Counted from the first letter of the stretch, positions 1 to 14,854 are shown. The stretch: 31,609 bases of DNA from Polyangiaceae bacterium (GCA_046596645.1 JBKJLX010000360.1:1-31609), one strand, 5' to 3'. A program made the numbers and translations. The notes: generated by a model not told the origin, from the letters alone.

Positions 1-1685
1 GGTTGCGCGGGCCCCACGGGGCGGGCTCGCTCATCCTTGTCCTCGCCCGCCGCGAGGTCGAACGTCGCGCTGGCGTCCCGGTCGAAGGTCACCATGCGCC
101 GCTCGGTCTTGAAGCCCTTCGCCTCGACGACGATGCGGTGGGTCATTCCGTCGGCGGGGAAGCGGCCCTCGAAGGGGTTGGTGGGGACCGGCGTGTCGTC
201 GATGGTGATGCGCGCGTCAGCCGGCCGAGCCTCGACGCGGACCGACACCGTCTTCGCGGCGGCGAGCCTGGTGCCGCCGCCATCGTCCTCGGAGGCGGTC
301 GGCGGCGTCGGCGTGACGACCCCGCCCGGGGTGGCGGCTGCGCGCTCCGGTGACGCCTCGTCGTTGCCCCGCCGGACCGCGAAGAGCCCGATCGCGACGG
401 CGCCCACGACGGCGGCAGCGATCCACGCCCTGCGGCTCCTCGCCGCGCCTTCGCTCACCTCACCCCGATCGGGGCTGGTGCTGCGCGGAGCGATCCCCGA
501 CGGGGTGCCCCGGCTGGACTGCGTCGCGCTGTGCGGACCGGTGCTGTCCCCCTCGGCGGGAGCCACGCTGGTCGGCGTCCCCGACCGAGGCGCGCTGGTC
601 GAGCCGGTGCCGAGCACCTGGAGGCCGTCGGTGGAGGAGGTGACGTTCGATGGATCGTGGATGTCGACCAGTTCGGCGCCCGTGTGCGCGCGCGCCAGCT
701 GGCGCTCGACGATGACGCGGATCTGCTCGCGCTTGTCGGCGAAGAGACCCTGGACGAAGGACGCCACGTCGCGCGAGCTGCAGCGAGCGTGCTCGCGGAT
801 GAAGGCGTCGAGGTCCTCACGGAGCTCGGCGGCGGTCGGGTAGCGGTCGTCTCGGTCCCGCGAGAGCGCCCTCATGCAGATGCGCTCGACCTCCTCCGGG
901 ACCTCGGGGGCCACCGTGCGCGGGCTGGCCGGGGTCGTGCTGGCCAGCTTCTCCAGGACCTGCACGTCGGTGAGCCCCGCCCACAGACGCTGGCCGGTCA
1001 GGAGCTCCCACAGCACCGAGCCCAGGGAGAAGATGTCGGCGCGGCGGTCGACGTCCTCGCATCGCGCCTGCTCGGGCGCCATGTAGTGCAGCTTGCCCTT
1101 GAGGACCCCGGTCCGCGTCTCGTAGGAGCGCGTCGCCGCCTTGGCGATGCCGAAGTCGACCAGCTTCGTGATCCCCTCGTAGGTCACGAAGATGTTGTGC
1201 GGGGTGGCGTCACGGTGGACGACGTGGAGGGGCGAGCCGTCGAAGTCCTTCAGCTCGTGCGCGTGGTGCAGCCCCGCCAGCGCCTCGCTGATCATGTGCA
1301 GGTAGATCGGCATGGGCACCGGCGCCTTGCGCCGGTGCGACCGGCTGAGGATCCGGTTGAGCGGCTGGCCCTCCAGGTACTCCATGGCGATGAAGAACTC
1401 GCCGTCGACCTCGCCGACCTCGTTCGTCTGGACCACGTTGGGGTGGTTGAGGCGGGCCGCCAGGCGCGCCTCGTCCAGGAACATCGGCAAGAACTCAGGC
1501 TCTTCGGCCAGGCTGGCGCGAAGACGCTTGATGACCACGAGCTTGTTGAAGCCGACCAGCCCCCGGGCGACTGCCAGAAATACATCTGCCATACCGCCTT
1601 GCCCCAGGGAGGCGAGGAGCTGGTACTTGCCGAAGACGGCCGAGGGAGCTGCCGGGGGGCGCTCGGAACTGCGGGCTTCTCCCAT
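1..1685 (-). CDS. Ser/Thr protein kinase, Hanks-type. Partial: the N-terminal kinase domain is in the window and the C-terminus continues past position 1. The catalytic loop is atypical, HRDATPHN.
   Basis: The reverse-complement translation starts at the ATG complementary to 1685-1683: [39 protein letters not shown]...VVIKRL...[11 protein letters not shown]...DFGIAKA...YMAPEQ. The Gly-loop, VAIK lysine, DFG and APE motifs are all present. There is no stop in this frame down to position 1, which explains why the ORF is missing from the track. A GAGGGG RBS-like motif lies about 10 nt upstream. Confidence 0.85.
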
Positions 1686-1707
1686 GGCAGGCCCCTCGAT
1701 CCTAGTC

Positions 1708-4700
1708 CTACTTGGTCTCGAAGAGCATCGGCTGGCGGCCGTTCAGGAACTGCACCACCAGCGGCGCCGCCTGCGCGGGGAGGATCTCGAAGCGAGCGCC
1801 GAAGCCGGGCTGGACCCAGGGTGGGCCCTGCTCGCCCTGGGGGCGCGTCCACTCCACCACCGCCGTGGCCTCGAAGTCGACGCCGCCGGGGAGCGTGACC
1901 CTGAGCGCGACCTTGGTGCCGAGGTCGGGCGCGCGGCGGTAGGTCGCGATGAAGATTCCACCCTCACGCACCACGTCTGCCCCCTGCTTCCAGCGGTAGA
2001 AATTGCTGGCGCTCACCTGGTCGATCACGGCGTCGAAACGCGGCATGCCGTCGGTGCGGCTCCCGCTCCCAGCCCCGCTCCCTTGCTGTACGCGCGACCC
2101 CAGGTCGCGGATCAGCTTCGACAGCTCGTCGAGCCGCGCCTCGACCCGATAGACGGCCGACCCCACCTCCGCGATCGCGGCGCCCTGCTTGCCCTTCGAC
2201 CGGCTGAGCGCCTGCTGCGCACGGGCGACCGCATCGCTCTCCGCCGCCGACATCCCCGGCCGCTGGACGGGCAGGGGAACGCCGCCGTCGTCGTCGCCGG
2301 CGACCACCACCTGTTGATGGATGACCGAGGGACCGGCGGGGCCGTGGCCCGCCTGCATCGCGGCAGCTTGCCCCATCTGGCTCATCTGCGCGCCCGCGGC
2401 GGCGACCCGGGCGGCGACGTCGCGCGTCTGCGCAGCGGCCTGCTGGATCTGCGCGGCGTGCTGCGCCTGCTGCGCGCCGAGCTGCTGGAGGCGCGCCAGC
2501 TGCTGACCCTGCTCGCGCGCTGCGTTCTGCGTCGCCGTGACCACCTCGCGCGCCTGGGCGGCCGCGGTCTGGACCTCCTTCAGCGCGGCGGTCTGCTGGG
2601 TGTGCACCTCGCCGATGCGCGCGATCTGCGCCTGCACCTGCTGGCCGGCGTCGGCGACGGCGCGCGCCAGCGCCTCGGCCTGCACCTGCTGGCCGGCGGC
2701 CTTCTCGGCGCCGGTGTCGCGGACGCTCTCCGCCAGCGCCTGCACCACTGGTGCGAGCGAGCTCTCCACCGTCGCCAGCTGCTGCGCCAGGAGCTCGGCC
2801 ACCGCCGGGTCCTGCTCGACGCGGATCAGCGTCTCCTTCGAGGCGATGGTCTTCTCCAGCTTCTGCAGCGCGGCCGCGATCGCCTGCGCGCGCTGGGCGG
2901 CGGTGTCGCCGCTCGACTTCGCCGCGTCGAGCAAGCCGCGGCGGATTCCCTCCAGCTGCTCGCCCAGGCCGGCCAGGGTGCCAGTGAGGCGCGACACCGG
3001 ATCGTCCTGCTTGCCGCCCATCATCTTGACGCGGACGTAGCCCTTCTTGATCTCCTCCCAGCGCTCGGACTTCTCCGGCGTCATGCGCCCGCGCATCTCG
3101 TACAGCTTCAGGAGGTTGTTCTCGGCGCCGGAGGTGAGCGTCTGCGACTCGCCCGCGTAGTGATCGTCGACGAGCGCCTCGACCTCCACCGGGGTGTGCG
3201 CCGACACCACCTTCTCGGTGATCTTGTTCATGTTGCGGTAGCTGCCCTGCAACTTGAACGGGGGCTCGGTGCGGTAGTTGTCGTCCTGCGACGCCGAGGC
3301 GATGTACTGCATGTTCACCTTCAGCAGCGTCTCCTGCACGCGGAACATGTGCTGGAGGACGGCGACGATCTCCTGCACCTCGGCGGCGGAGTAGCCGTAG
3401 GACAGCTCGCTCGCCGGCACCGGCTCGCCGCGCGCCATGCGGATGAGCTTGTGCAGGTCCGCCGGGTCGCGCCCGGAGAGCGGCGCCAGGACGCGGTTCG
3501 AGGTGAGCGCGTTCTCCACGTACGACAGCGCGAAGAGGTCGCCCTTGCCGTCGAGGATGTCGCCGAGGTTGTAGGTGTCGGCGCGGTTCGCGAGCATGTC
3601 CGGGATGCGGAACTTCTCGCCGGTCTCGGTGTACGGGTTGCCGGCCATGACCACGGCGAACTTCTTGCCGCGCATGTCGTAGGTGCGCGTCACCCCGCGC
3701 CACACGCCCTCGATCTTCCGCTGCGCGTCGCAGAGGCTGATGAACTTCTGCAAGAGCTCCGAGTGCGTGTGCTGGATGTCGTCGAGGTAGAGCATCACGT
3801 TGTTGCCCATCTCGAGCGCGAGGTTGATCTTCTCGACCTCCTGCCGGGCGGTGGCGTTGGGCGCCTCCGCCGGGTCCAGCGACTTCACCTCGTGGCCCAG
3901 CGCCGGGCCGTTGATCTTCATGAAGACCAGGCCCAGGCGGTTGGCGACGTACTCCATGAGCGTCGTCTTGCCGTAGCCGGGCGGGCTGATCAGGAGGAGC
4001 AGGCCCATCAGATCGGTGCGCTTGGTCGCGCCCGCCGCCCCCATCTGTTTGGCGAGGTTGTCGCCGACCAGGTGCAGGTACACCTCGTCGATGAGCCGGT
4101 TGCGGACGAAGCTCGACATGATGCGCGGCTTGAACTCTTCGAGCCGGAGGCGCTTCTTGTGCTCGTCCAGCACGTCCTGCCGGAGCTTGCGGAAGGCGCG
4201 GAAGCGCGGGACGTGACCGTGCACCCAGCGGTCGAGCCTCGCCAGCATCTCGTCGAGGCGCAGGTGGAGCGCCTGCTGCTTGATGCGCGGGTGCTGACCG
4301 AGGAGGCCGCTCACCGTGGCCTCCACGTTGGCGGTCGACACGTCACGGTCGACCTTGCGATCGGTCGCCACCAGGGCCGACGCCTCCAGCACCGCGTGCT
4401 GGTGGCCGGCGAGGTCGCCCTTGGTGGTGCAGAGCGCCTCGATCCACGAGCGCACCAGGGCCAGGCGCGCGCCGGGAAGCTTCTCCAGCGTCCGCAGGTC
4501 CTCGTCGAAGTCGCGGCGTGACCCGGCGCGGTCGAGCTCGGAGAGCAGCGCCGCCTGCAGCGTCGACGCAGAGCCGCTCACCACGAAGCGAGGGCGCTCG
4601 GTGCCCAGCTCGACCACCAGGTAAAGCGAGGCGATGCGCACGTCGCCGTCGGGGATGCTCAGGCCCAGCTGCTGCGCGGTGGCAGTCAGGGCGGGGACGA

Positions 4701-7700
4701 GCTCGGCGGCGATCTCGTTCTGCGCGGTGACGACGCCCAGCGTCGCACGGAGGCGGGCGGCGCTGCGGCAGCGGCGGTGGAGGGGGATGCGATCGGGCTC
4801 GGCCAGCTGCGACCACAGGAGCCCGCCCAGGGCGCGCGGGTCGGGCGCAAAGCGGAGGAGGCCTGCGGCGCGCTGCATCCCCACCAGCTTCTCCAGGATG
4901 AGCACGGCGTCGTGGTCGTGCACGCCGCGCTCGTAGCCCTCGTCGTGACGATCCTGGGAGAAGGCGCGCACCACCTCCAAGAGACCGCCGTCTCGGGTGT
5001 GCGCCTCGATGAGCTTCTCCAGCGTGAGGCCGCTGGCGCCGGCCTCCGCCGCGAACAGGATCACCGCCGCCAGGTACTCGCCGCGGTAGACGTTGGGCCC
5101 CTCGGAGGCGAGCGCCTGGTCCCACAGGTCCCGCGCCTCCTCCAGGCGCGGCTCGTTCAGCGGCTCGTAGAAATCGGTGCCGGTGAGGTGGAGGAACAGC
5201 ACCTCCTTGTTCGTATTATCGTCTCGCCTGGGCACCAGCGTCAGCTCGACCGCCTGGGTCGAGACGTTGAAGCGGTGCTTGCCGAGCTTGATGACGTTGT
5301 CGCCATCCTCGAAGAGCTCGGTCTTGTCGCGCAGGGTGCGCAGCGACTCCTGCCGCGCCGCCTTGAGCTTGCTCTCCAGCTCGTCGGCCTTGACCGACTC
5401 GCCCATGTCCATGAGCTGCTTCGCGAGGTCGCGAAGCTTGAGCACCATGGAGTCCGACGCGAAGTAGCTCGCCAGGTCGTCGGCGGTCTTGAGGGTGTGC
5501 GCCTTGCGCACGATGCCCTGGATGACGCGCTCCGCCGCCGACAGGATGTTCTGCGCGCGACGCTGGCGCTCGTCGAGCAGCTGCTGCCGCTTGCCGGCAA
5601 AGGCGTCGGCGACCTCCTCCCGCTTCTGGGTCAGGTCGCCGAGGAACTCGTCGAACTCGCCGAACTTCCCCTCCAGCTCCTCCAGCTGGAGCAGCAGCCT
5701 CGACAGCTGCTCGTCGCACTTCTCCGGCGTGTCGCAGACGGAGATGGCGCTCACCACCGACTGGCCGAACAGCTTGAACTGGGCGAGGAACTCCTGGCGC
5801 CCCTCGGCGGAGGAGAGCTCCTTCTTCCGCACCTGGAGGACGGCGCGGGCGCGGTTCAGCTGGGAGTACGCCTCGCTGATGCCCTCGAGGATGCGCGTCC
5901 TCTGCGTGGGGTCCTCGATGGAGAGGCCGCCGATGACGTCGGAGAGGACGCCCAGGCCCTCGTTCACCTTGTCGACGTCCTCCGCGATCGGCTTGAGCTC
6001 GGTGGCCTTGGCCACGGCGCCCACCCGGGTCGGCACGTCGGCGAGGCGACCGACCAGGGGCTTCAGCGACTCGGGGTGGAGGAGGAACTCGACCGCGGCC
6101 TTCGACACCTTGTCGAAGCTCTCGACGATGTGCTTCTCCAGCTCGTCGATGCGCGCGGTGTTCATGTACCGCATCTCGCGCAGCGTGATGAGGTGACCGC
6201 GCTGCTTGCGGAGCGCCGAGAGCGTCCCCATGAAGTCGTCGACGGTCCTGTGATCCTCCGGCCGGAGGCCGGAGACCAGGCGGTCCTGCGCGGCCTCCGA
6301 CTCGGCGAGGGACTCCGCCGCGCGCTTCTTGACCGCGGCGACCTTCTCGAACTCGTCGATGACGAGCGCGGCGGTCTCGCGCACCTTCTGGATGACGGAG
6401 AGGAGATCGCCCGCCTCGGCGTGGCCCAGCCAGTAGTACGCGTCGACCATGCGACGCGCGCTCTGCACGGCGTCCTCGTAGGTCTGGCGGGTGGGGTTCT
6501 CCACGCTCGCCACCTTCACGATGGTGAAGGCCTCGCTGATGCCGCGCACCAGCTCGGCGTTGCCGACCTTGGAGAGGTAACTGCCGTCGGTCGGCGCCTT
6601 GGCCGCGTGCTCCTGCGTCACGAACGGCGTCTGCCAGATCTGCACCGGGTGCACGGTGGTCGGCTCGTCGTTCAGCACCTTGAAGAGGACGATCTTCCCG
6701 TCGTCGAAGAGGCTGTAGCCGTGGCAGGGGAGGGGGTTCTGCACCTCCTTGCGGATGAGGTTGTAGGGGAGGAGGAGGTAGTGACCGTCGACCTCGCGGT
6801 AGTAGACGTAGAGGATGTCCTCGCCGTTGGGCGACTTGACCACGCGATCGAAGACCGAGTCCTTCGAGATCTCGGCGTCGAAGACCTTGAAGTCGCCGGT
6901 GCGCAGGTAGTAGCCGCCGGGAAAGATGATCCCCTGGTCTTCCGGCAGCTGCAGGCACGACAGGCCGATGGCGTCGATGCGCACCACGGTCTTGGTGCGC
7001 GTGTTGAAGACCAGGTGGCGGTACGTCTCCTCCCGGTACGGCTTGATGCGCAGGAGGATCAGCGAGCCGAGCCGCGCGTAGAACACCTCGGCGTCGTCGA
7101 GGCTCTGGTTCTTGTCCTCGACCGGCTCGCGCCACACGCCCCGCCCGTCGCGGGTGTTGTTCTCGATCTTGACGGTGAGATCGCCGCCGACGGTGTCGAC
7201 GAAGACCTCGTCCTCGATCGCGTAGTGCGGGTGGTCCCCGGAGATCTGATCCTCCCGGGTGACCGCGGTCCACTCGAAGTCGAACTGGCGCGCGAGGCGG
7301 TTGTCGTCCTCGCCTCGGGCGTCGATGAACTTGATCGCCCCGCCCTTGTCGATGCCCCAGCGGAAGACCTTCTGATCGGAGAGCTTCTCTCCCGCCTGGA
7401 AGACGGCGATGACGCGGGTGTCGGTGGTCCGCACCTGGAGGAGCCGCGTGCCCTTGGTGTAGCGATAGAGGTCGGTGAACTCCTTGAGGAACGCCGCGTC
7501 GGTCAGGAAGTGACCCGGCGGGATGGGCAGCTCACCCAGGTCGAAAGCACCGGGCGCCGTCTCGACGAACTGGTGCACCGCGAAGACGTCGGCGACGACG
7601 GTCTCGGTCTTCAGACCGATGAGGACGTTGTAGCCGAAGACCATCTGGCCCCCGACCTGGCGGATGTCGCGCGGGACGCAGCTGTGGTCGGTGCGGATGC

Positions 7701-7911
7701 GCTCGGTCGCGACCAGAGCGAGCGCGGAGCCGCCGAAGGTCTTGGTCCGCTGCGCGTTGAGCGCCTCGGTCTTCTTCGCCAGCCCCGCGCAGTGATCGAG
7801 CAGGCGCTGGCGGATGACGTCGTAGCTACCGCCCTCCAGCGCGCTCGCGCTCTCGCTCTCCCCCGCGGCCGCCCCGCTCGGAGCGGCGGTCTTCACCCCG
7901 TCGTCGGCCAT
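1708..7911 (-). CDS. Giant (2067 aa) multidomain protein. It has an N-terminal beta-rich region of about 520 aa, long coiled coils, and an AAA+ ATPase core that looks like the MoxR/AAA_5 dynein-related subfamily. The Walker A Lys is at about residue 1315 (nt ~3967-3969), Walker B is LYLDDIQ, and the sensor region is AVVMAGNPYTE. A Q/A-rich low-complexity coiled coil follows (aa ~1700-1830), then a C-terminal ~110-aa beta domain that may be PilZ-like.
   Basis: This is the ORF-track entry 1708..7911 (-). The start ATG is preceded by GGGGGCGGAG. Motifs read directly from the translation: LLLLISPPGYGKTTLMEYVANRL and MLYLDDIQHT...AVVMAGNPYTETGEKFRIPDMLANRADTY. The C-terminus reads ...ATYRRAPDLGTKVALRVTLPGG...GFGARFEIL. 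The gene is tightly linked to the upstream flotillin (36 nt) and the downstream kinase (22 nt). Confidence 0.85.
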   Translation of the reverse strand: MADDGVKTAAPSGAAAGESESASALEGGSYDVIRQRLLDHCAGLAKKTEALNAQRTKTFGGSALALVATERIRTDHSCVPRDIRQVGGQMVFGYNVLIGLKTETVVADVFAVHQFVETAPGAFDLGELPIPPGHFLTDAAFLKEFTDLYRYTKGTRLLQVRTTDTRVIAVFQAGEKLSDQKVFRWGIDKGGAIKFIDARGEDDNRLARQFDFEWTAVTREDQISGDHPHYAIEDEVFVDTVGGDLTVKIENNTRDGRGVWREPVEDKNQSLDDAEVFYARLGSLILLRIKPYREETYRHLVFNTRTKTVVRIDAIGLSCLQLPEDQGIIFPGGYYLRTGDFKVFDAEISKDSVFDRVVKSPNGEDILYVYYREVDGHYLLLPYNLIRKEVQNPLPCHGYSLFDDGKIVLFKVLNDEPTTVHPVQIWQTPFVTQEHAAKAPTDGSYLSKVGNAELVRGISEAFTIVKVASVENPTRQTYEDAVQSARRMVDAYYWLGHAEAGDLLSVIQKVRETAALVIDEFEKVAAVKKRAAESLAESEAAQDRLVSGLRPEDHRTVDDFMGTLSALRKQRGHLITLREMRYMNTARIDELEKHIVESFDKVSKAAVEFLLHPESLKPLVGRLADVPTRVGAVAKATELKPIAEDVDKVNEGLGVLSDVIGGLSIEDPTQRTRILEGISEAYSQLNRARAVLQVRKKELSSAEGRQEFLAQFKLFGQSVVSAISVCDTPEKCDEQLSRLLLQLEELEGKFGEFDEFLGDLTQKREEVADAFAGKRQQLLDERQRRAQNILSAAERVIQGIVRKAHTLKTADDLASYFASDSMVLKLRDLAKQLMDMGESVKADELESKLKAARQESLRTLRDKTELFEDGDNVIKLGKHRFNVSTQAVELTLVPRRDDNTNKEVLFLHLTGTDFYEPLNEPRLEEARDLWDQALASEGPNVYRGEYLAAVILFAAEAGASGLTLEKLIEAHTRDGGLLEVVRAFSQDRHDEGYERGVHDHDAVLILEKLVGMQRAAGLLRFAPDPRALGGLLWSQLAEPDRIPLHRRCRSAARLRATLGVVTAQNEIAAELVPALTATAQQLGLSIPDGDVRIASLYLVVELGTERPRFVVSGSASTLQAALLSELDRAGSRRDFDEDLRTLEKLPGARLALVRSWIEALCTTKGDLAGHQHAVLEASALVATDRKVDRDVSTANVEATVSGLLGQHPRIKQQALHLRLDEMLARLDRWVHGHVPRFRAFRKLRQDVLDEHKKRLRLEEFKPRIMSSFVRNRLIDEVYLHLVGDNLAKQMGAAGATKRTDLMGLLLLISPPGYGKTTLMEYVANRLGLVFMKINGPALGHEVKSLDPAEAPNATARQEVEKINLALEMGNNVMLYLDDIQHTHSELLQKFISLCDAQRKIEGVWRGVTRTYDMRGKKFAVVMAGNPYTETGEKFRIPDMLANRADTYNLGDILDGKGDLFALSYVENALTSNRVLAPLSGRDPADLHKLIRMARGEPVPASELSYGYSAAEVQEIVAVLQHMFRVQETLLKVNMQYIASASQDDNYRTEPPFKLQGSYRNMNKITEKVVSAHTPVEVEALVDDHYAGESQTLTSGAENNLLKLYEMRGRMTPEKSERWEEIKKGYVRVKMMGGKQDDPVSRLTGTLAGLGEQLEGIRRGLLDAAKSSGDTAAQRAQAIAAALQKLEKTIASKETLIRVEQDPAVAELLAQQLATVESSLAPVVQALAESVRDTGAEKAAGQQVQAEALARAVADAGQQVQAQIARIGEVHTQQTAALKEVQTAAAQAREVVTATQNAAREQGQQLARLQQLGAQQAQHAAQIQQAAAQTRDVAARVAAAGAQMSQMGQAAAMQAGHGPAGPSVIHQQVVVAGDDDGGVPLPVQRPGMSAAESDAVARAQQALSRSKGKQGAAIAEVGSAVYRVEARLDELSKLIRDLGSRVQQGSGAGSGSRTDGMPRFDAVIDQVSASNFYRWKQGADVVREGGIFIATYRRAPDLGTKVALRVTLPGGVDFEATAVVEWTRPQGEQGPPWVQPGFGARFEILPAQAAPLVVQFLNGRQPMLFETK

Positions 7912-7947: not shown

Positions 7948-10143
7948 TCAGGTCAGGCTGTCGATGCCGAGGTCACGTGCCTCGGCGGCGAGCGACTGCA
8001 GCTTCTTGCGGGTCGCCTCGTCGCGGCCCGCCATCATCGAGGCGAGCAGCGACGTGATGCTGAGCTGCGAGCCGGTGCCCACCGCAGGGCCCTCCAGGAT
8101 GTCCTTCAGGTCCTTCGGCATGTTGCGGGCGCCGGACATGTAGTCGCCGAGCACGTGCTTCAGCACGTCGCTCTGGTCGATGGCGCCGTCGACGCCCTGG
8201 CCCACCGAGAGCGCGCGCATGAACTTGTCGAAGAACTGACCGTCGCCGCCGACGATCTGGATCTTCGCGTGGTCGAGCGCGTGGGAGAGGATGGTCGCCT
8301 GCTGGGCGGCGACCTTCTCCCGGACGTCGAGGGCGTGCATCGCGATGTCGCGCTGCGCGTCCAGGCGGATGCGGAACTCCTCGTGCCCGCGGCTCTCGGA
8401 GTCGAGCTGCTTCATCGCCGCCATCTTGGCGCTGATGCCGTCGGCCTCGGCGGTCAGGCGCAGGCGCGTCGCGCTGGCCTCGGCGGCGCCGGTCTTCTCG
8501 ATCGCGCCTGCCGTCGCCTCCTGGACGCGTGCGGCGGCGTGGCCCTTGGCCTCGGCGCCGGTCGCCTCGGCGTTCAGCATCTCCCGCACGACCAGTGCGT
8601 CGGCGATGCCCTTCTTCTCGATGGCGGCGGCCTCAGCCTCCTGCACGCGGACCCTGGCCAGGCCCTGCTTCTCCTCGCCCTGGGCGGCGGCCTGCATCTT
8701 CTCGATGAGGACGCGCGCCTCGACCAGGCCGAGCTTCTCGATGGCGGCGGCGTCCGCCTCCTTCACCTTCACCTCGGCGAGGCCGGCGGCCGCCGTCTCC
8801 GCCTGGATGCCCTCGGCGAGGCGGATCTTGGCGCGCGCGGCCTTGTCGCTCGACTCCAGGTCGGCCTCGGCCATGAGCACCTTCTTGCGCGCTTCGATCT
8901 GGGCCACCTGCTCGCTGGCCTCGGCGGCCTTGACCTGCTTGACCAGGTGGTCGGCGGCGGAGGCCTCGGCAGCGATGGTGATGATCTGCTTCTCGCGGTT
9001 CGACTGGGAGAGGGTGCGCAGATCCTTGATGCGCTCCTCCTCCTCCGCCACCGTCTTGTCGACGGCGATGCGCCCGCGGATGACGTCGGCGATCTCCTTC
9101 TTCTTGATCTCGACGTCCTTCTGCTTGGCGATGGTCTGCAGCTCGAACTCGCGCTCGCGCCCGACCTGCTCGATCATGCGCGCCTTCTCGGTGCGCTCCT
9201 TCTCGACGGCGACCTCGCGCTCCTTGTTCTGGCGCGCGACCAGGGTGGCGCGCTCCTTTCCCTCGGTCGCGACCAGGACCTCCTCCTCGTTCTTCTGGCG
9301 GATGAGCATGGTCTGCTTGTGCTCGGCCTCGGCGATGCGGCGGGCCTCGTTCTCGTGGCGGGCCTGGGCGACCGCGATCTCGGCGTTCTTCTTGGCGTCG
9401 GCCTCGGCGCGCGCCTTGTCGAACCTGAAGATCGCCTCGTCGGAGGCGAGGTTCTGCGACCCCATCTCCATGCGCTCCTTCTGGCGCAGGTCGTTGGTCT
9501 TCACGTTCTGGATCACCGTCAGCTCGGTGATCTTGCGGATGCCCTCGGCATCCATGATGTTGTCCTTGTCCAGCGTCTCGATCGGCGTCTGCTCGAGGTA
9601 GTCGATCGCGCAGTCGTCGAGCACGAACCCGTTCAGGTCGGTGCCGATGACGCGGATGATCTCGTCCTTGAAGCCCTGGCGCTCGGCGTAGAGGCTCTCG
9701 AAGTTCATCATCTTACCGACGGTCTTCAGGGCCTCGGAGAACTTCGCGACGAAGAGCTCCTGGATGACCTGCGGGCTCGAGGCGCGCGCGCAGCCGATGG
9801 CCTGCGCGACCCGCAGCACGTCGTTCGCGGTCTTGTTCACTCGCACGAAGAACGTGACCTTGATGTCCGCGCGGATGTTGTCCTTGCAGATCAGGCCGTC
9901 CTTGCCATCGCGCGCGAGCTCGATGGTCTTGACGGAGATGTCCATCGTCTCGGCGCGGTGGATGATCGGGTAGACCGTCTTGCCCGTGAACGTGACGAGC
10001 GGCTCGTCCTGCATCGTGTTCACGATGAGCGCGGTGCCCTGGTCCACCTGGCGGTAGAACTTGGCGACCATCACCAGCAGACCGAAAATGATGACTGCCA
10101 GGGCGCCGATGCCCAGCAGCAGGAGAATGATCTCGTCCGACAT
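7948..10143 (-). CDS. Flotillin-like SPFH/Band-7 protein (YqiK/FloT-like). It has an N-terminal TM helix, an SPFH domain and a long Glu/Ala-rich coiled-coil region with EA repeats.
   Basis: This is the track ORF 7948..10242 (-). The start was moved to the internal ATG (complement of 10143-10141, MSDEIILLLLGIGALAVII...), which is preceded by GAGGTGAGAGAAGCC. The SPFH region reads ...YPIIHRAETMDISVKT...VLRVAQAIG.... The C-terminal coiled coil carries ...AEVKVKEADAAAIEKLG...VQEAEAAAIEKKG..., the typical flotillin EA repeats. Confidence 0.9.
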   Translation of the reverse strand: MSDEIILLLLGIGALAVIIFGLLVMVAKFYRQVDQGTALIVNTMQDEPLVTFTGKTVYPIIHRAETMDISVKTIELARDGKDGLICKDNIRADIKVTFFVRVNKTANDVLRVAQAIGCARASSPQVIQELFVAKFSEALKTVGKMMNFESLYAERQGFKDEIIRVIGTDLNGFVLDDCAIDYLEQTPIETLDKDNIMDAEGIRKITELTVIQNVKTNDLRQKERMEMGSQNLASDEAIFRFDKARAEADAKKNAEIAVAQARHENEARRIAEAEHKQTMLIRQKNEEEVLVATEGKERATLVARQNKEREVAVEKERTEKARMIEQVGREREFELQTIAKQKDVEIKKKEIADVIRGRIAVDKTVAEEEERIKDLRTLSQSNREKQIITIAAEASAADHLVKQVKAAEASEQVAQIEARKKVLMAEADLESSDKAARAKIRLAEGIQAETAAAGLAEVKVKEADAAAIEKLGLVEARVLIEKMQAAAQGEEKQGLARVRVQEAEAAAIEKKGIADALVVREMLNAEATGAEAKGHAAARVQEATAGAIEKTGAAEASATRLRLTAEADGISAKMAAMKQLDSESRGHEEFRIRLDAQRDIAMHALDVREKVAAQQATILSHALDHAKIQIVGGDGQFFDKFMRALSVGQGVDGAIDQSDVLKHVLGDYMSGARNMPKDLKDILEGPAVGTGSQLSITSLLASMMAGRDEATRKKLQSLAAEARDLGIDSLT

Positions 10144-10316: not shown

Positions 10317-11150
10317 TCAGCGCTTGCCGAGCTGCGCCTCGAGCTCGGCGACTCGACGCAGAGCAGCCGCTGCGCGGGCGGACTCCTGGTCGGCGCGGGC
10401 GGACTCCTGGTCGGCGCGGGCGGACTGCTGCTCGGCGCGGGCGGACTCCTGCTCTGCGCGAGCCGTGGCCAGCACCGCGCCGGTCGTGGCCAGCGCGGCC
10501 CGCTCCTCCCCGCTGGGCAGCACCGCGCCGTCGGGGCCGATCCAGCGGAGGAGCGGCGCCCCGACGTTTCCGGACCGACCGGGCACGACGCCCAGCGCGA
10601 GCCCCGTCACGCGCGACGGGAATCGACCCTCGGCGTCGGGCGAGCGAGCTCGGTAGCTCCTGGTCGAGGCGTCGAGCTCGAAGCCCTCGAGGCGGCTCGA
10701 GAAGGGGTCGAACAGGTAGTACTCCGCGACGTGGAGGAGCTTGGCGTAGATCCGCATCTTGTCGCCGCGGTCGACGTGCTCGGTGGAGGGCGAGGTGAGC
10801 TCGATCACGAGATCGGGGCCGCGACCGTCCTCCTCCCACACGACCCAGCTCTTCCGCTCGCGCTTGACGGTGTCCATGACCACGAAGACGTCGGGGCCGC
10901 GCACGTCGACGTTCCTGGCCTGGAGCTCGCTGTAGTAGACGAACATGTTGCCCGCGACGTACACGTCGTCGCGATCGCGCCACGCGTCGTTCAGCGTGGA
11001 GATGAGCAGCACCATCTGCTCGCGGTGACGTTCGGTCTCCATGGGCTCCCCGTCGTCGCAGGGGAGGTCCTCGCCGCGCGGCGGCGGCCTGAAATCGGGG
11101 TCGATGGGTGTCATCTCCGCGGTCACAGGGTACCTCCCGCGCGGGGTCAT
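10317..11150 (-). CDS. Uma2 family (DUF820) restriction-endonuclease-like protein. Its C-terminal tail is a tandem heptapeptide repeat, (ARAEQES/ARADQES)x4.
   Basis: Track ORF 10317..11150 (-). The translation reads ...MTPIDPDFRPPPRGEDLPCDDGEPMETERHREQMVLLISTLNDAWRDRDDVYVAGNMFVYY...IYAKLLHVAEYYLFDP..., which is the Uma2/DUF820 signature layout. An alternative start is the internal ATG at ~11114, which has GGAG upstream. Confidence 0.75.
   Translation of the reverse strand: MTPRGRYPVTAEMTPIDPDFRPPPRGEDLPCDDGEPMETERHREQMVLLISTLNDAWRDRDDVYVAGNMFVYYSELQARNVDVRGPDVFVVMDTVKRERKSWVVWEEDGRGPDLVIELTSPSTEHVDRGDKMRIYAKLLHVAEYYLFDPFSSRLEGFELDASTRSYRARSPDAEGRFPSRVTGLALGVVPGRSGNVGAPLLRWIGPDGAVLPSGEERAALATTGAVLATARAEQESARAEQQSARADQESARADQESARAAAALRRVAELEAQLGKR
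10374..10457 (-). repeat. Four tandem copies of the 21-bp unit gcgggcggactcctggtcggc. They encode the (ARA[ED]QES)n tail of the Uma2 gene above.
   Basis: Read directly from the sequence: near-perfect 21-bp units at 10374-10457. Confidence 0.8.
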
Positions 11151-11352
11151 GGCGAACCGCGTGCCGTCGCGCTGGGCCTCCGGAGCAAGGGCCGCGCCGT
11201 GGTCGGCGGGTGGCGGCGTCCCGGTGCGGGGTGGCGGCCGCCACTGCGACCCACGCGACGAGCTGCGCGCTGACGCCGCGTCGTCGCAGCCGGGGCAGGG
11301 CGGAGGTTAACGACAAGCCTGAGCCGATGCGCTGGAGCTCGTGCGCCGCTCG

Positions 11353-12201
11353 TCAGCGCGCCGGGGGGCTGCTCCGCGGCTTCGCGACGACGTCCTCGGC
11401 GCGCACGGTCGTCGCCGCAGCGCTCAGCCATTGCTCGAGGACCTGGCGGTTCTGCTGCCCGGCCACGGCGTCGTGCACGGGCGCGGGGTCGATGCCGCGA
11501 GCGGTCAGCACCGCGAGGATGCTGCTGCGAAGCGTGGCCTCGCCTCCTTCCTGGCGTCCTTCTTCGCGGCCTTCTTCGCGGCCTTCCTCGCGGCCTTCCT
11601 CGCGGCCTTCCTCGCGGACGGCGTCGAGGCCGGCGTAGCCCCTGCGCTGGAGCAGGTTCCGGAGCGTGGCGTCGTGGGCGGCGTCGCGATCGAAGAGGAC
11701 GGCGATCGGCACCGGGTTCTCGAGGATGCCCGGGGCGTGGAGCACGGCCCCCTCGCGGGCGACGCGCATCGCCGCGCCCGGCTCGTGGACCTCGACCCGG
11801 GGCTCGCCATCGAGGCGAGCCACCCAGATGAGCTTCGTGCCGGCGCCGAGCAGCTCCGCGATCTTGAGCTGCAGGGCGTCTTCGTCCTGGCCGACGTCGG
11901 CGTACTCCACGGCCAGCGGTGGCGCCTTCGTCGCCCAGCCAGGCGCGTCCTCGATGGGCCCGACCGCGACGTCTGGCGCGCGAAGCATCCCGGGCGCGGT
12001 CGAGATGCCCAGATCGACGCCGGCGGCCGCGACCTTCGGATCCGTCTCGAGCGCCGCGCCTCCGACGAGGTTGCGGGTGCTGCCGCGACGCCCCGTGGGG
12101 AGGCACAGTAGCGCGTGGCCGTCCGACAGCTCGTAGGGATCCTTCGAGCGGAGCTGGCTCGCCTGGAAGGGGCCGGGGGCGAGGTTTGGACGCCGCGTCA
12201 T
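11353..12201 (-). CDS. Uma2 family (DUF820) endonuclease-like protein, second paralog. It carries an internal (REEG)x6 tetrapeptide repeat.
   Basis: Track ORF 11353..12303 (-). The start was moved to the ATG complementary to ~12201 (MTRRPNLAPGPFQASQLRSKDPYELSDGHALLCLPTG...). The translation contains ...KLIWVARLDGEPRVEVHEPGA... and then REEGREEGREEGREEGREEGRQEG. Confidence 0.7.
   Translation of the reverse strand: MTRRPNLAPGPFQASQLRSKDPYELSDGHALLCLPTGRRGSTRNLVGGAALETDPKVAAAGVDLGISTAPGMLRAPDVAVGPIEDAPGWATKAPPLAVEYADVGQDEDALQLKIAELLGAGTKLIWVARLDGEPRVEVHEPGAAMRVAREGAVLHAPGILENPVPIAVLFDRDAAHDATLRNLLQRRGYAGLDAVREEGREEGREEGREEGREEGRQEGGEATLRSSILAVLTARGIDPAPVHDAVAGQQNRQVLEQWLSAAATTVRAEDVVAKPRSSPPAR
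11548..11607 (-). repeat. About 5-6 tandem copies of the 12-bp unit gccttc(c/t)tcgcg. They encode (REEG)n in the second Uma2 gene.
   Basis: Read directly from the sequence at 11548-11607. Confidence 0.8.
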
Positions 12202-12226
12202 GACCTCGCAGCGTAGCAGCGGATGC

Positions 12227-12480
12227 TCACTCCAGGCCGATGGCGATGGTGAATGCGCGCGCCAGTGCCTCGTCGGCGGCGGAGGCGGGTCGGGGCAGCG
12301 CATCGTGGAGCCCGCTCTGCCAGCTCATGGCGTGGAAGAGCTCGTGGGCGAGCACGGCGAGACCTTCGCGTGCGTCGAGCCATCCTCCTCGAGGACGTCG
12401 TTCGGCACGTAGACGAAGTGCGAGCGGTGCTCGGCGTAGCCCCAGATGCCGATACGGGCCAGACCGCCGTGGCCCCACAA
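12227..12480 (-). pseudogene. Possible frameshifted remnant of a small HExxH metallopeptidase-like gene. Two adjacent minus frames join to give ...GIWGYAEHRSHFVYVPNDVLEEDG / WLDAREGLAVLAHELFHAMSWQSGLHDA....
   Basis: HELFH lies in the 12227..12511 (-) ORF and GYAEH lies in the C-terminal end of the 12325..13134 (-) ORF. The frames switch near the GAGGAGGATGGCTCG run at ~12395-12405. The region is otherwise an unexplained ~400-bp gap between the short SPFH gene and the second Uma2 gene. Confidence 0.25.
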
Positions 12481-12605
12481 GCGTTGCGAGGTTCGTGATC
12501 GCGCCGGACATTGTCTGTCCGCACGCGGGGGCCCTTTTCGCCGCGCTGGCTGATCAGCAGCGGCAGGCGGCGCCGGACGCAGCACGTCGAGCCCGACTCG
12601 AACGC

Positions 12606-13181
12606 TCACCCACGGTAGGCGGAGCCGACCCCCACCCGCACGCCGGTGATGGCGAGGTCGCCGAGGGTGAAGCCGTCGAGGTCGGTCCCGACCTCCTCGG
12701 TCACCCGGTCGCAGAGCTCGCTGCGATCGCGATCGATCGCGTCCGCGCGAAGGTCGCGCGCGACCGACTCCAGGGCGTGGTTGAGCCTGGGGAGGAAGCG
12801 CTGCCGCACCGCCTCGGGGTCGGACGCCGCGGCCGCGCCCAGGATCTGCGCTGCGCGCAGGACGTCGTCGCGCGTCTTGTGGATGCGCAGGTGGAACGTC
12901 GCGGTGAGCTCGACCTGCTCGTCGTCGCGGGTGCGCAGCGACGCGTCTCCGCGGCGCTCGATGGCGACCAGGTGCTCGCGTAGGCTCACCCGCTCCATCC
13001 GGTGGAGCATCGGGATAACGACGGCGGCGTCGAAGGCCACCAGCGACCCGTGGGGCGACGGTCGGGTCACCACCAGCGCCTCGTCGGGGGCTGCCTTCTT
13101 GTAGAACGCGGCGATCATCACGACCAGGCCGCACAGGATGAGCCCGATCAGGCCGACGCCGAGAAGGACGGTGAGCGCCAC
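12606..13181 (-). CDS. Short SPFH/Band-7 domain protein of about 191 aa: one TM helix plus an SPFH core. It stops where flotillins begin their coiled coil.
   Basis: Correct frame is the C-terminal part of track ORF 12606..14390 (-). Starting from the GTG at 13181, which overlaps the NfeD stop (cTGAcgGTG), it reads (M)ALTVLLGVGLIGLILCGLVVMIAAFYKKAAPDEALVVTRPS...LRIHKTRDDVLRAAQILG...GTDLDGFTLGDLAITGV.... This is homologous to, but divergent from, the N-terminus of the 7948..10143 flotillin. Confidence 0.7.
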   Translation of the reverse strand: MALTVLLGVGLIGLILCGLVVMIAAFYKKAAPDEALVVTRPSPHGSLVAFDAAVVIPMLHRMERVSLREHLVAIERRGDASLRTRDDEQVELTATFHLRIHKTRDDVLRAAQILGAAAASDPEAVRQRFLPRLNHALESVARDLRADAIDRDRSELCDRVTEEVGTDLDGFTLGDLAITGVRVGVGSAYRG

Positions 13182-13183
13182 CG

Positions 13184-14047
13184 TCAGCGCCGCGCTCGTT
13201 CGGCGCCCGTCTCTCTCTCGGCCAGCACCGCCTCGACCTCGGCCCTGGCCTCGCGCAGCGCCTCGGCGTTCGCTGGCGCGCCGGGGTCGGCGAGGATGTC
13301 GGTCATCTTCTCGATGCGGAACAGGCCACCCTCCTCGTCGACGATGAGGCAGCGATCGCCGCGCCGGAGGTCCAGCGCCGGATCGGCGCGCACCTGGACG
13401 ATGAGGCCGGCGCCGCCGTCCTCCAGGGTGGCCTGGCCGAAGCCCTGGTCGACGCGGCCCGTCGACACCACCGCCACCCGACCCACGAGGTGGACGTGGC
13501 GCTTGGCGTGCCGCGTCTGGAAGAGCGGCGCGATGGGGCGGACGGCGAACGAGGTCAGGATCAGGGACAGGATCGCGGAGCCGAGCAGGATGGGGATGCT
13601 CAAGAGCCACGCCGGCAGGCCGAGAGCCCCCGCGAAGGTCATCACCGCGAGCGAGCTGAGCATCCAGCCGAAGAGCGAGAAGAAGGAGACGACGACGGTC
13701 ACCGGCGCGTCGCGCAGGCGCAGGGCCGAGGCGAGCGTGGCGAGGACCCCGCTGTCGGGGAGGTCGGCGTCCACGTCGTGCCCGTCGAAGCCGTCGGCCA
13801 CACCGCTCTTCGCCTCCAGCGCACCCTTGACGCTGCCCTCGAGGACGCCCTTTGCGGCGCCCTCGAGCGCTCCCTTGGCGGCGCCCTCGAGGACGCCCTT
13901 GGCTGCGCCGTCGATGGCGCCGTCGGCGGCGCTGTCGAGGTCGACGGCGCCGACGAGGACGAAGACCCAGTAGATGAGCGATAGGCCGAGCAGGACGGTG
14001 AAGATCACCGTCGGGAACGACGCCGCAATCGCCAGGATCCCCGCCAT
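13184..14047 (-). CDS. NfeD-like (YqiJ/YuaF-like) membrane protein. It has N-terminal TM helices, an internal (AAKGVLEG)n repeat linker, more TM helices and a C-terminal NfeD OB-fold.
   Basis: Track ORF 13184..14047 (-). The translation reads MAGILAIAASFPTVIFTVLLGLSLIYWVFVLVG...; ...HLVGRVAVVSTGRVDQGFGQATLEDGGAGLIVQVRADPALDLRRGDRCLIVDEEGGLFRIEKM is the typical NfeD beta-barrel. Sitting directly upstream of an SPFH gene is the canonical NfeD-SPFH operon arrangement. Confidence 0.8.
   Translation of the reverse strand: MAGILAIAASFPTVIFTVLLGLSLIYWVFVLVGAVDLDSAADGAIDGAAKGVLEGAAKGALEGAAKGVLEGSVKGALEAKSGVADGFDGHDVDADLPDSGVLATLASALRLRDAPVTVVVSFFSLFGWMLSSLAVMTFAGALGLPAWLLSIPILLGSAILSLILTSFAVRPIAPLFQTRHAKRHVHLVGRVAVVSTGRVDQGFGQATLEDGGAGLIVQVRADPALDLRRGDRCLIVDEEGGLFRIEKMTDILADPGAPANAEALREARAEVEAVLAERETGAERARR
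13823..13925 (-). repeat. About 3.5 tandem copies of a 24-bp unit (ggcgccctcgaggacgcccttggc-like). They encode the (AAKG[VA]LEG)n repeats inside the NfeD gene.
   Basis: Read directly from the sequence at 13823-13925. Confidence 0.7.
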
Positions 14048-14127
14048 GGCGGCATGGTGGCACGGCGCGCTGGACGATTGTGGGTTTGACCGGAATCGGG
14101 GCGCGCTCGTACCCTCGACCGCGCTGT

Positions 14128-14655: not shown

Positions 14656-14854
14656 CCGGCGACCCTCCGGAGGCATCCCCCTCGACGGGTCGACCTTTCG
14701 CGCCAGCGTTCCGCGTACGTCGGCGCACAAAGCGATAGCATGACGGGCGTTGACCTCCGCCAAACCTCCCAAGCCGCAACTGGGCGCGAGCGGACTGCCC
14801 CAGCTGGACGACTTCGAGCCGGACGTCACGACGACCCGTCAGACCGATCCGACC

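Follow-up and report, generated by a model that had tools for sequence, protein, structure and literature searches.

A giant DUF3686-DUF7902-AAA+ ATPase with a non-canonical PilZ tail is encoded beside a YqiK-like flotillin and a YqiJ/NfeD-like membrane protein in a Polyangiaceae bacterium

Introduction

What does a single ATPase module do within a protein of more than two thousand residues? The question is raised by a gene on the reverse strand of a Polyangiaceae contig (GCA_046596645.1, JBKJLX010000360.1; the window analysed is the whole stretch of 31,609 nucleotides). An initial annotation, made from the sequence, had described one MoxR/AAA_5-like core between beta-rich and coiled-coil flanks, followed by a Q/A-rich segment and a possible PilZ-like barrel, and had proposed that the barrel could be a c-di-GMP receptor linked to a nearby FHA-GGDEF cyclase. 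Here, domain, structure and gene-neighbourhood comparisons are combined to address the role of this ATPase.

Domain architecture and family membership

The open reading frame starts with ATG and encodes a 2067-aa product, and its GC3 of 0.96 is usual for genuine genes on this contig with 71% GC (features in Table 1). Translation and motif search confirmed a giant frame with one P-loop, Walker A, Walker B and sensor motifs, and all motifs quoted previously were found in the translation, including the C-terminal strings (aa 1989-2044). As had been described, beta-rich and helical sequence flanks the core, with a beta-propeller (aa 65-430) and long helices (aa 445-865 and 943-1290) in the model. 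From the N-terminus, the parts follow in the order beta-propeller, long-helix scaffold of ~850 aa, one AAA+ module and helical lid.

Table 1. Features of the ATPase gene and of its neighbours in the window
Feature	Residues (aa)	Position (nt)	Strand	Evidence
Whole gene, 2067-aa DUF3686-DUF7902-AAA+ protein with coiled-coil and PilZ extension		1708..7911	(-)	ORF, translation, GC3, Pfam
DUF3686 domain, modelled beta-propeller (strands aa 65-430)	44-493	6433..7782	(-)	Pfam PF12458, AlphaFold, Foldseek
Long-helix region	445-865	5317..6579	(-)	DSSP of model
DUF7902, inside long-helix region	615-698	5818-6069	(-)	Pfam PF25472, E 1.7e-23
Small beta domain, then helical domain	873-917; 943-1186	4354..5295	(-)	AlphaFold model
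AAA+ alpha/beta core and lid start	1300-1500	3412..4014	(-)	Pfam AAA, AAA_5; motifs; model
Walker A, GYGKTT	1312-1317	3961-3978	(-)	Motif search
Walker B, LYLDDIQ	1374-1380	3772-3792	(-)	Motif search
Pre-sensor-1 beta-hairpin	1399-1412	3676-3717	(-)	Model
Sensor 1, AVVMAGNPYTE	1419-1429	3625-3657	(-)	Motif search
Arg-finger region, RIPDMLANRADTY	1435-1447	3571-3609	(-)	Motif search
Helical lid and post-AAA conserved module, C-terminal limit at conserved GGKxDDPV	1501-1640	2992..3411	(-)	Model, alignment conservation
Q/A-rich long helix	1741-1838	2398..2691	(-)	Composition, model
Disordered stretch directly after Q/A-rich helix	1838-1888			Model
C-terminal PilZ-fold domain, degenerate c-di-GMP motifs (PRFDA..., DVVREGG)	1955-2067	1711..2049	(-)	
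YqiK-like flotillin, 731 aa from MSDEII		7948..10143	(-)	hhalign, database names
Window-specific insertion inside module		10317..13181	(-)	Pfam Uma2, Band_7
Two Uma2-family genes		11353-12303; 10317-11306	(-)	Pfam
Truncated SPFH copy		12606-13181	(-)	33% identity to flotillin N-terminus, E 2e-30; GC3 0.94
YqiJ/NfeD-like membrane protein, 287 aa		13184..14047	(-)	Homologues, hhalign, Pfam

The N-terminal region matched PF12458 (DUF3686) at E 4.7e-190 with profile positions 2-448 of 448 covered. The propeller region of the AlphaFold model has a pLDDT of about 85-92, within an N-terminal model of overall pLDDT 83, and its Foldseek matches were Ski8 WD40, prolyl-oligopeptidase and tricorn propellers at E about 1e-5. 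For the small beta and helical domains (aa 873-1186), no specific fold match was obtained.

By its sequence, the protein belongs to the DUF3686-DUF7902-AAA+ family, of which it is typical. This family is already catalogued, widespread and conserved: a database search returned more than 5892 homologues at E<=1e-10, the nearest with up to 76% identity over the full length, and the propeller region falls into 248-548 clusters at 50% identity. In a genome scan, aa 1-1200 were 42-66% identical to homologues, which came from Myxococcota, Actinomycetota, Gammaproteobacteria, Planctomycetota and Acidobacteriota. Members from Sorangium, Chondromyces crocatus and plasmid pQBR103 have the same domain order, ATPase motifs, and flotillin and YqiJ-like neighbours. 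By contrast, at 2067 aa the present protein stands at the long end of a family whose members have about 1600-1850 aa, carries a 316-aa Q/A-rich linker and a PilZ domain otherwise confined to Polyangiales relatives, and is encoded in an operon broken by an insertion. Both the DUF3686 domain in the N-terminal 450 aa and the large family had been overlooked in the first reading.

The AAA+ core

SPPGYGKTT is the sole P-loop of the protein, consistent with the single core noticed earlier, and the proposed likeness to MoxR/AAA_5 proteins was partly supported. Pfam AAA_5 matched at 31.5 bits against a cut-off of 22 over almost the entire alpha/beta core (aa 1305-1428, profile positions 2-125 of 139), and PF00004 (AAA), also above its cut-off, scored 35.3 bits but over half of its profile only. 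The top structural neighbours were NorQ, dynein, CbbQ and midasin, with a small Z margin over Lon (8.8) and ClpB (8.6). In the core model (pLDDT 85-95), the pre-sensor-1 hairpin (strands at model residues 199-204 and 207-212, pLDDT >80) sits between the post-Walker B helix and the sensor-1 strand.

In 71 of 75 loci from several phyla the ATPase motifs are nearly invariant, and between Myxococcota and Pseudomonas or Xenorhabdus the identity over aa 1286-1460 is 78-85%. The family-invariant SPPGYGKTT, YLDDIQH, MAGNPYTE and PDMLANRAD are all present. Walker A and B, sensor 1 and the Arg finger are intact, and this conservation suggests an active ATPase. The AAA module is missing an aromatic pore-loop-1 residue (sequence NGPALGHEV), which argues against classical polypeptide threading.

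We considered whether the protein could act as a conventional chaperone of the MoxR type, maturing a metallo-enzyme or a VWA/MIDAS partner, with the flotillin as a mere membrane anchor. Such a role would agree with NorQ (9qh4) and CbbQ (6l1q) being among the best structural neighbours, with the AAA_5 score above cut-off, and with the sensor-1/Arg-finger stretch NPYTE.G..F.IPDMLANRAD, which we take to resemble the MoxR signature. However, compared with these MoxR/AAA_5-type systems and with dynein and midasin, Walker B reads DD instead of DE, and the P-loop and beta2 stretch resemble classic AAA or RuvB. Moreover, the MoxR-clade helix-2 beta-hairpin insert is absent from the predicted model, in which aa 1335-1352 form coil and a short helix (pLDDT 85-95), and no VWA/MIDAS partner was found among the neighbour families conserved across 80 related loci, which comprise only the flotillin and the YqiJ-like protein, joined in Gammaproteobacteria by PspA, DUF2170, rhomboid and PLD families. 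We regard a conventional chaperone role as very unlikely.

A conserved module with flotillin and YqiJ/NfeD-like genes

Five phyla share a conserved three-gene unit in which the ATPase gene comes last, after a gene for a YqiJ/NfeD-like membrane protein and then one for a YqiK-like flotillin. The flotillin, composed of a TM, an SPFH domain, EA-rich repeats and a C-terminal extension, is encoded with a gap of 36 nt before the ATPase start. Alignment of its family with E. coli YqiK gave an hhalign probability of 99.9 (E 1.3e-31, 406 columns) with columns spanning the TM, SPFH and flotillin-repeat regions, and its homologues carry the database names 'YqiK' and 'flotillin family protein'. In 73 of the 80 related loci, the ATPase gene is directly preceded on the same strand by a flotillin homologue; six of the remaining seven loci lack any upstream DNA. 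The flotillin stop and the first aligned ATPase codon are a median of 105 nt apart, and the distance is <=300 nt in 68 of the 73. The YqiJ-like gene aligned with E. coli YqiJ at hhalign probability 91.7 (E 7.8e-7; Pfam YqiJ_OB E 0.016), and a homologue of it is found upstream of the flotillin gene in 69/80 loci.

In E. coli, yqiJ-yqiK likewise encodes an NfeD-like protein and a flotillin that are homologous to the two upstream genes of the module and stand in the same order, but no ATPase gene follows yqiK. The module flotillins also differ from E. coli YqiK in a C-terminus extended by about 150-200 aa, and the majority fall below the Pfam Band_7 threshold (E<=0.01 was reached by only 5 of 33 family members). 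In the present window the insertion has displaced the YqiJ-like gene to a distance of ~3 kb from the flotillin gene, and in another locus the flotillin and ATPase genes are 6.4 kb apart; tight co-transcription is therefore not obligatory. Neither the flotillin nor the YqiJ/NfeD-like partner had been noticed in the initial annotation.

These neighbours bear on the name 'DNA repair ATPase', the NCBI label for the family (for example in Sorangium, Chondromyces crocatus and pQBR103, WP_011922896.1). If the label were correct, the protein would work on nucleic acid, for instance in a RuvB-like manner, as the NCBI and Pfam names, a weak P-loop similarity to RuvB and a Pseudomonas island a few kb from recJ could suggest. 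However, the RuvB likeness is confined to the generic P-loop region, Pfam and fold searches detected no nucleic-acid-binding domain, and the conserved neighbours are all membrane proteins. The recJ and thrC homologues adjoin in 5-6 Pseudomonas-type loci and would most simply be ordinary chromosomal neighbours, and a literature search found no paper backing the name. A role in DNA repair is therefore highly improbable, and the name has no backing from domain content or gene context.

The PilZ tail and the Q/A-rich linker

Fold and profile searches showed that the C-terminal ~110 aa adopt a PilZ fold, as had been suspected. The tail matched TIGR02266, a myxobacterial PilZ-like family, at E 5e-11, and stayed below the 22.5-bit cut-off of PF07238 (13.5 bits with the full protein, 19.4 bits with the isolated domain), a profile that 34 of 45 orthologous PilZ domains match at E<=0.01 (best 5.6e-8). 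The earlier remark that a clear RxxxR...DxSxxG is lacking was correct, and it applies across the clade of 45 relatives. The RxxxR position reads PRFDAV, with the first Arg in 43/45 relatives and the second in 3/45, and the D/NxSxxG position reads DVVREGG, where D and GG are conserved, Ser occurs in 0/45 and Val in 34/45.

Given a true PilZ fold, the remaining Arg, D and GG, and a GGDEF gene 7 kb away, the barrel could in principle be a c-di-GMP receptor that places the ATPase under the FHA-GGDEF cyclase. However, the binding motifs are degenerate in the second Arg and the Ser, and the TIGR02266 and Pfam PilZ alignments begin at profile position ~26-30 and leave out the RxxxR segment. The only significant solved relatives in the structure search were Xanthomonas PilZ proteins (XAC1133/XC1028; PDB 3cnr, 3dsg, 4f48 and 7lkm). 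Xanthomonas PilZ proteins of this kind are not known to bind c-di-GMP and act as an adaptor between FimX and the PilB ATPase. The cyclase gene itself was confirmed by Pfam (14750-15697), but it is read from the opposite strand, unrelated genes intervene, and it is no conserved neighbour in the 80 related loci, where only 4 weak, scattered matches were found. The suggested functional link thus finds no support, and regulation by direct c-di-GMP binding appears quite unlikely; c-di-GMP sensing should not be assumed from the PilZ fold of this ATPase before binding has been assayed. By analogy with Xanthomonas PilZ, the tail is most likely a protein-protein adaptor and less likely a direct sensor. 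It differs from that free 12-kDa protein in being fused to the ATPase via a long helix, and neither a PilB nor a FimX partner is evident here.

The tail occurs in only 8 of the 80 related loci, all from Myxococcota and mostly Polyangiales (Polyangiaceae, Labilithrix). The PilZ tail, which is non-canonical, and the Q/A helix appear to be lineage-specific additions of Polyangiales. The Q/A-rich tract is real (Q+A 48-58% in 60-aa windows over aa 1741-1860, against 17% in the whole protein), but its description as extreme low complexity was overstated: the underlying DNA shows nothing beyond a weak 21-nt x3 repeat (2427-2489), and AlphaFold modelled aa 1741-1838 as a single long helix. Linker length varies among relatives, as had been proposed for checking, from 297-383 aa in the closest clade to 129-136 aa in Sorangium and Chondromyces. 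The flotillin/YqiJ context is more telling for the function of the ATPase than this PilZ domain.

Proposed mechanism and alternative roles

We propose, with a probability of about 0.5, that the ATPase is an ATP-driven remodeller of flotillin assemblies in a membrane-stress or membrane-maintenance system. Like its AAA+ relatives, the protein would oligomerise, probably as a hexamer, and the propeller and helical arms could dock it onto a membrane-bound flotillin/YqiJ assembly. ATP would then be spent on building or dismantling that assembly, or on loading or extracting client proteins, and the remodelling would serve membrane stress or maintenance. No published study or experiment on the family was found in a literature search, so this mechanism is drawn from synteny and analogy. 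It is modelled on FtsH within the HflK/C cage and on Vps4 at ESCRT-III/PspA polymers, in which an SPFH or ESCRT-III-like scaffold is likewise paired with an AAA+ ATPase. In contrast to FtsH and Vps4, the present protein has neither a protease nor a MIT domain, and sequence kinship is limited to the AAA+ fold, so that the analogy is an inferred one.

More tentatively, the triad might be a dedicated flotillin-cage machine for assembly, disassembly or unloading, equivalent in prokaryotes, for the flotillin branch of the SPFH family, to Vps4/ESCRT-III or FtsH/HflKC. In Polyangiales this machine would have gained a PilZ adaptor linking it, perhaps not directly, to some other regulator or to signalling by second messengers. 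The pairing suggests that energy-dependent flotillin assemblies are possible, and one flotillin subfamily encoded with an ATPase whose core is ~80% identical across phyla offers a concrete, mutable handle.

The distribution of the family is patchy and includes megaplasmids, plasmid pQBR103 and genomic islands, a pattern also compatible with an accessory cassette for defence or stress. It raises the possibility of a mobile anti-phage or abortive-infection role, in which the YqiJ-flotillin-ATPase cassette would sense membrane perturbation. An island-like placement between thrC and recJ in Pseudomonas, accessory genes of kinds known from defence islands (a rhomboid and a PLD-like nuclease/phospholipase fold), and the nuclease-like Uma2 genes inserted here, one of which matches the PADLOC candidate PDC-S03, point in the same direction. 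However, the Uma2 genes are missing from all 80 related loci, and conservation of the AAA core at about 80% identity across phyla is unusually high for a defence gene. Nothing above coiled-coil noise was found when the three core proteins were compared with 5027 PADLOC models (PADLOC 2.0): the ATPase gave only mad8 (E 0.01) and LmuB (E 9e-5) in the coiled-coil region, and the flotillin and YqiJ-like proteins gave none. An anti-phage function is accordingly unlikely, and flotillin remodelling remains our preferred reading. In the gammaproteobacterial loci, genes for DUF2170 and PspA/IM30 lie upstream and the rhomboid and PLD-like genes downstream, PspA/IM30 being in the same cluster in 13 loci, and in pQBR103 the triad stands beside yjfKLMC-like genes.

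Conserved gene neighborhood of the ATPase

A genome scan with one genome per species confirmed at least 536 loci for the ATPase, a 2067-aa DUF3686-DUF7902-AAA+ protein. Eighty of them, from Myxococcota, Actinomycetota, Gammaproteobacteria, Planctomycetota and Acidobacteriota, were kept for comparison (42-66% identity over aa 1-1200). In 73 of the 80 loci a co-oriented flotillin homologue was located immediately upstream; six of the seven misses had no upstream DNA in the locus. The distance from flotillin stop to first aligned ATPase codon had a median of 105 nt (300 nt or less in 68/73). The only real exceptions to this adjacency were Myxococcales bacterium 68-20 (locus L008, 3467-9947), in which 6.4 kb with OmpA-family, DUF11 and lectin-like genes separates the two genes, and a Labilithrix sp. 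(locus L080) with no flotillin gene within 10 kb upstream of the ATPase gene. Upstream of flotillin, 69/80 loci possess a gene for a YqiJ-like membrane protein of ~200-290 aa with an OB-like domain at its C-terminus (hhalign to E. coli YqiJ, probability 91.7, E 7.8e-7; Pfam YqiJ_OB, E 0.016), completing a triad.

The window flotillin has no Pfam match of its own, and PDB sequence searches with it alone and with its profile gave no matches. Its family alignment matched E. coli flotillin YqiK over 406 columns (hhalign probability 99.9, E 1.3e-31), and its relatives carry the database names 'YqiK' or 'flotillin family protein'. Pfam Band_7 detected 5 of 33 subfamily members and many genomes annotate them as 'hypothetical protein'; domain-based SPFH surveys will undercount this subfamily.

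Further neighbors were seen in particular lineages. DUF2170 (YjfI-like) and PspA/IM30 genes precede the triad in 13 gammaproteobacterial loci, while a rhomboid protease (10 loci) and a PLD-like gene (11 loci) follow it, all on the same strand; in one Pseudomonas genome (locus L045) hom-thrC and yaeQ-recJ flank the entire island. Family members are likewise carried by Streptomyces, Deinococcus and Hymenobacter plasmids and by the Pseudomonas fluorescens SBW25 megaplasmid pQBR103 (NC_009444.1, 86464-100440), whose triad (annotated as hypothetical, SPFH domain-containing and DNA repair ATPase) directly follows a yjfKLMC-like set of DUF2491, DUF350, DUF1190 and glutathionylspermidine-synthase-family genes and precedes an MvaT/MvaU gene. 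The conserved neighbors are all membrane or membrane-stress proteins. Although databases label homologues 'DNA repair ATPase' or 'AAA family ATPase', no DNA-repair protein is among these neighbors, making a DNA repair enzyme extremely improbable. That the triad serves as a defence cassette is also unlikely, though less remote, given that a PADLOC search yielded no defence assignment. The FHA-GGDEF cyclase gene, raised initially as a possible functional partner, is not a conserved neighbor among the 80 loci, and neither the downstream Ser/Thr kinase gene nor the Uma2 genes are conserved partners there.

Our literature search found no paper mentioning the Pfam families DUF3686/PF12458 or DUF7902, and nothing on the ATPase family, alone or with flotillin, YqiK/YqiJ, NfeD or MoxR; neither PMC13086221 nor PMC9239133 covers the family. 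Within the searchable literature the flotillin link was previously undescribed, and it is this link, rather than the PilZ/c-di-GMP idea, that makes the locus worth following up.

Family membership and predicted architecture

The ATPase reading frame has codon-position GC contents of 0.70, 0.42 and 0.96, as genuine genes do in this window of 71% GC. Every motif string quoted in the initial annotation was located in its translation, and SPPGYGKTT is its sole P-loop, in agreement with the single ATPase core described there. A search of 5.8 billion proteins returned more than 5892 homologues. The closest among the matches listed are Polyangiaceae MAG proteins (2050-2140 aa, 60-76% identity); proteins of Sorangium, Chondromyces, Labilithrix and Archangium come next, and relatives bearing the PilZ domain are already present in databases. 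The propeller region alone retrieved 248 clusters (50% identity) at E≤1e-30, rising to 548 with a cut-off of E≤1e-10, and full-length members have 1600-2036 aa. The protein is a typical member of this catalogued family; its family and module membership is near certain. No solved structure for any member was found by PDB sequence search.

Features of the window, of the ATPase (aa) and of related loci
Feature	Position	Strand	Details
ATPase gene	1708..7911	-	ATG start, 2067 aa
Flotillin gene	7948-10143	-	731 aa, 36 nt upstream of ATPase gene
Uma2-family (restriction-endonuclease-like) genes	10317-11306, 11353-12303	-	between YqiJ-like and flotillin genes
Putative truncated SPFH copy	12606-13181	-	191-aa ORF right behind YqiJ-like stop
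YqiJ-like gene	13184-14047	-	third triad gene
Ion_trans_2 (K+ channel-like) gene	14002-14655	+	divergent from YqiJ-like gene
DUF3686	aa 44-493		Pfam E 4.7e-190
DUF7902	aa 615-698		Pfam E 1.7e-23
AAA			Pfam E 1.9e-8, first half of profile only
AAA_5	aa 1305-1428		Pfam E 2e-7, nearly whole profile
PilZ			Pfam E 0.095, sub-threshold
GYGKTT	aa 1312-1317
LYLDDIQ	aa 1374-1380
AVVMAGNPYTE	aa 1419-1429
RIPDMLANRADTY	aa 1435-1447
C-terminal strings of initial annotation	aa 1989-2044
Helix	aa 30-59		AlphaFold model
All-beta region	aa 65-430		AlphaFold model
Long helices, up to 58 residues	aa 445-865		AlphaFold model
Small beta domain	aa 873-917		AlphaFold model
Helical domain	aa 943-1186		AlphaFold model
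AAA+ core	aa ~1300-1500		AlphaFold model, confident
Lid and helical module	up to aa ~1640		AlphaFold model
C-terminal beta-barrel plus helix	aa 1958-2058		AlphaFold model, pLDDT >90
Gammaproteobacterial flanking genes	L038 5761-7144 and 15291-16674; L045 5671-7002

Two AlphaFold models, each built with a 53-sequence alignment, together span the whole protein (pLDDT 83 for aa 1-1200 and 74 for aa 1201-2067). The predicted N-terminal beta region matched WD40, prolyl-oligopeptidase and tricorn propellers in Foldseek (E about 1e-5). Foldseek matches to dynein, clathrin heavy chain and Elongator reached TM scores of only 0.11 or less; we treated these matches as generic similarity of a modelled propeller plus long helices, and not as a sign of a coat-like or dynein-like protein.

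The AAA module

Over residues 1286-1460, homologues from Pseudomonas, Xenorhabdus and Labilithrix share 78-85% identity with the ATPase (78-80% for this core, window 3532-4056, in the Pseudomonas L045 and Xenorhabdus L051 loci), compared with only 42-45% for the N-terminal 1200 aa against the Pseudomonas and Xenorhabdus proteins. Walker A was present in 71/75 loci, and in five with an apparently missing motif tblastn found the motifs intact, indicating ORF-picking artefacts. The module is under unusually strong constraint, and its conservation points to an active ATPase.

In Foldseek searches against the PDB, the module matched the MoxR protein NorQ best (E 2.4e-4), then RuvB (E 2.8e-4), CbbQ, Rubisco activase, HslU, MCM and p97; structural Z scores were 10.2 for NorQ, 9.6 for dynein, 9.3 for CbbQ, 8.8 for Lon, 8.6 for both ClpB and NVL, and 8.4 for midasin. 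When the whole ATPase, or a 36-sequence profile of its AAA module, was searched against PDB sequences, the matches covered just ~35 residues around the P-loop of p97, NVL and RuvB and were unusable for clade assignment. The initial 'MoxR/AAA_5-like' label remains the best available because AAA_5 scored above cut-off, the model has a pre-sensor-1 hairpin (two beta-strands placed after the helix that follows Walker B and before the sensor-1 strand), and both searches are led by MoxR, dynein and midasin. Membership in that clade was not established, however, because the beta insert in helix 2 is absent from the model, the leading scores differ little and the 80 loci share no conserved VWA partner. 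A classic MoxR chaperone is very improbable.

The Q/A-rich helix and the C-terminal PilZ fold

The Q/A-rich tract noted initially is real by composition: within aa 1741-1860, Q and A together make up 48-58% of each 60-aa window, whereas their share of the ATPase as a whole is 17%. Because AlphaFold models aa 1741-1838 as a single continuous helix, followed by ~50 disordered residues, and the underlying DNA holds only a weak 21-nt x3 repeat, the tract is a helical spacer of biased composition and not an array of repeats. The linker preceding PilZ varies among relatives, being Q/A-rich and 297-383 aa long in the closest clade, and of ordinary composition and 129-136 aa in Sorangium and Chondromyces.

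The last ~110 aa are kept at the C-terminus in 89 of the 120 best homologues. The suspected PilZ-like barrel was borne out: a 45-sequence profile of this domain matched only Xanthomonas PilZ proteins in the PDB (3dsg, E 7e-7; 4f48_B, 7lkq_B, 3cnr), Pfam PilZ was matched at E≤0.01 by 34 of the 45 sequences, and the domain gave a TM score of 0.66 to 7lkm_C, the PilZ of a PilB-PilZ complex (Foldseek), so the fold assignment is solid. The myxobacterial PilZ-like NCBIfam model TIGR02266 matched the ATPase at E 5e-11, under its cut-off.

Doubts voiced at the outset about the binding motifs were well placed, since both are degenerate across the 45 relatives. Of the two Arg residues in RxxxR, the first is kept in 43/45 and the second in 3/45; in D/NxSxxG the D and GG are kept, while the Ser occurs in 0/45 (Val in 34/45). 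A direct c-di-GMP receptor, as suggested originally, is therefore improbable. The Xanthomonas PilZ proteins, the nearest solved relatives of this domain, are not known to bind c-di-GMP; they act as adaptors that link FimX to the PilB ATPase. The PilZ domain was found in 8/80 loci, all Myxococcota and mostly Polyangiales (Polyangiaceae and Labilithrix), and is absent in the actinobacterial, gammaproteobacterial, planctomycete and acidobacterial versions. Given this restricted occurrence and the clade-dependent linker, the Q/A helix and PilZ domain were added recently, and specifically in this lineage, to a much older core.

A proposed action on the flotillin/YqiJ assembly

Combining the highly conserved, apparently catalytically competent AAA+ module and the large modelled propeller and helical scaffold with near-obligatory genetic coupling to flotillin and an NfeD-type protein, we propose that the ATPase would oligomerise and use ATP to act on a flotillin/YqiJ membrane assembly or its clients. 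It may reshape this assembly, build it up or dismantle it, or pull clients out of it, in membrane maintenance or stress handling, with the PilZ tail probably recruiting a partner protein. HflK/C-FtsH and Vps4-ESCRT-III/PspA would be possible analogues of such a pairing. Because the putative pore-loop stretch NGPALGHEV lacks an aromatic residue, its sequence suggests MoxR-like remodelling rather than processive threading. We place the probability of this overall proposal at about 0.5.

Insertion and other genes near the window triad

The two Uma2 genes have homologues in none of the 80 loci, indicating insertion into the conserved operon. For the first (10317-11306), PADLOC returned the candidate defence family PDC-S03 (E 6.5e-11); the second contains an (EGRE)n repeat. 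The 191-aa ORF consists of a TM segment and SPFH domain only (GC3 0.94) and shares 33% identity (E 2e-30) with the N-terminus of the complete flotillin encoded 2.5 kb away; it looks like a diverged, truncated copy of the flotillin 5' end produced by rearrangement. Ion_trans_2 homologues adjoin the YqiJ-like gene, in either orientation, in eight myxobacterial loci (L006, L012, L025, L028, L029, L032, L037 and L041). At the other end, a Ser/Thr protein kinase gene with a C-terminal PEGA domain (2-1742, minus strand) is cut by the window end; it starts inside or just past the final ATPase codons and may be co-transcribed with the ATPase gene.
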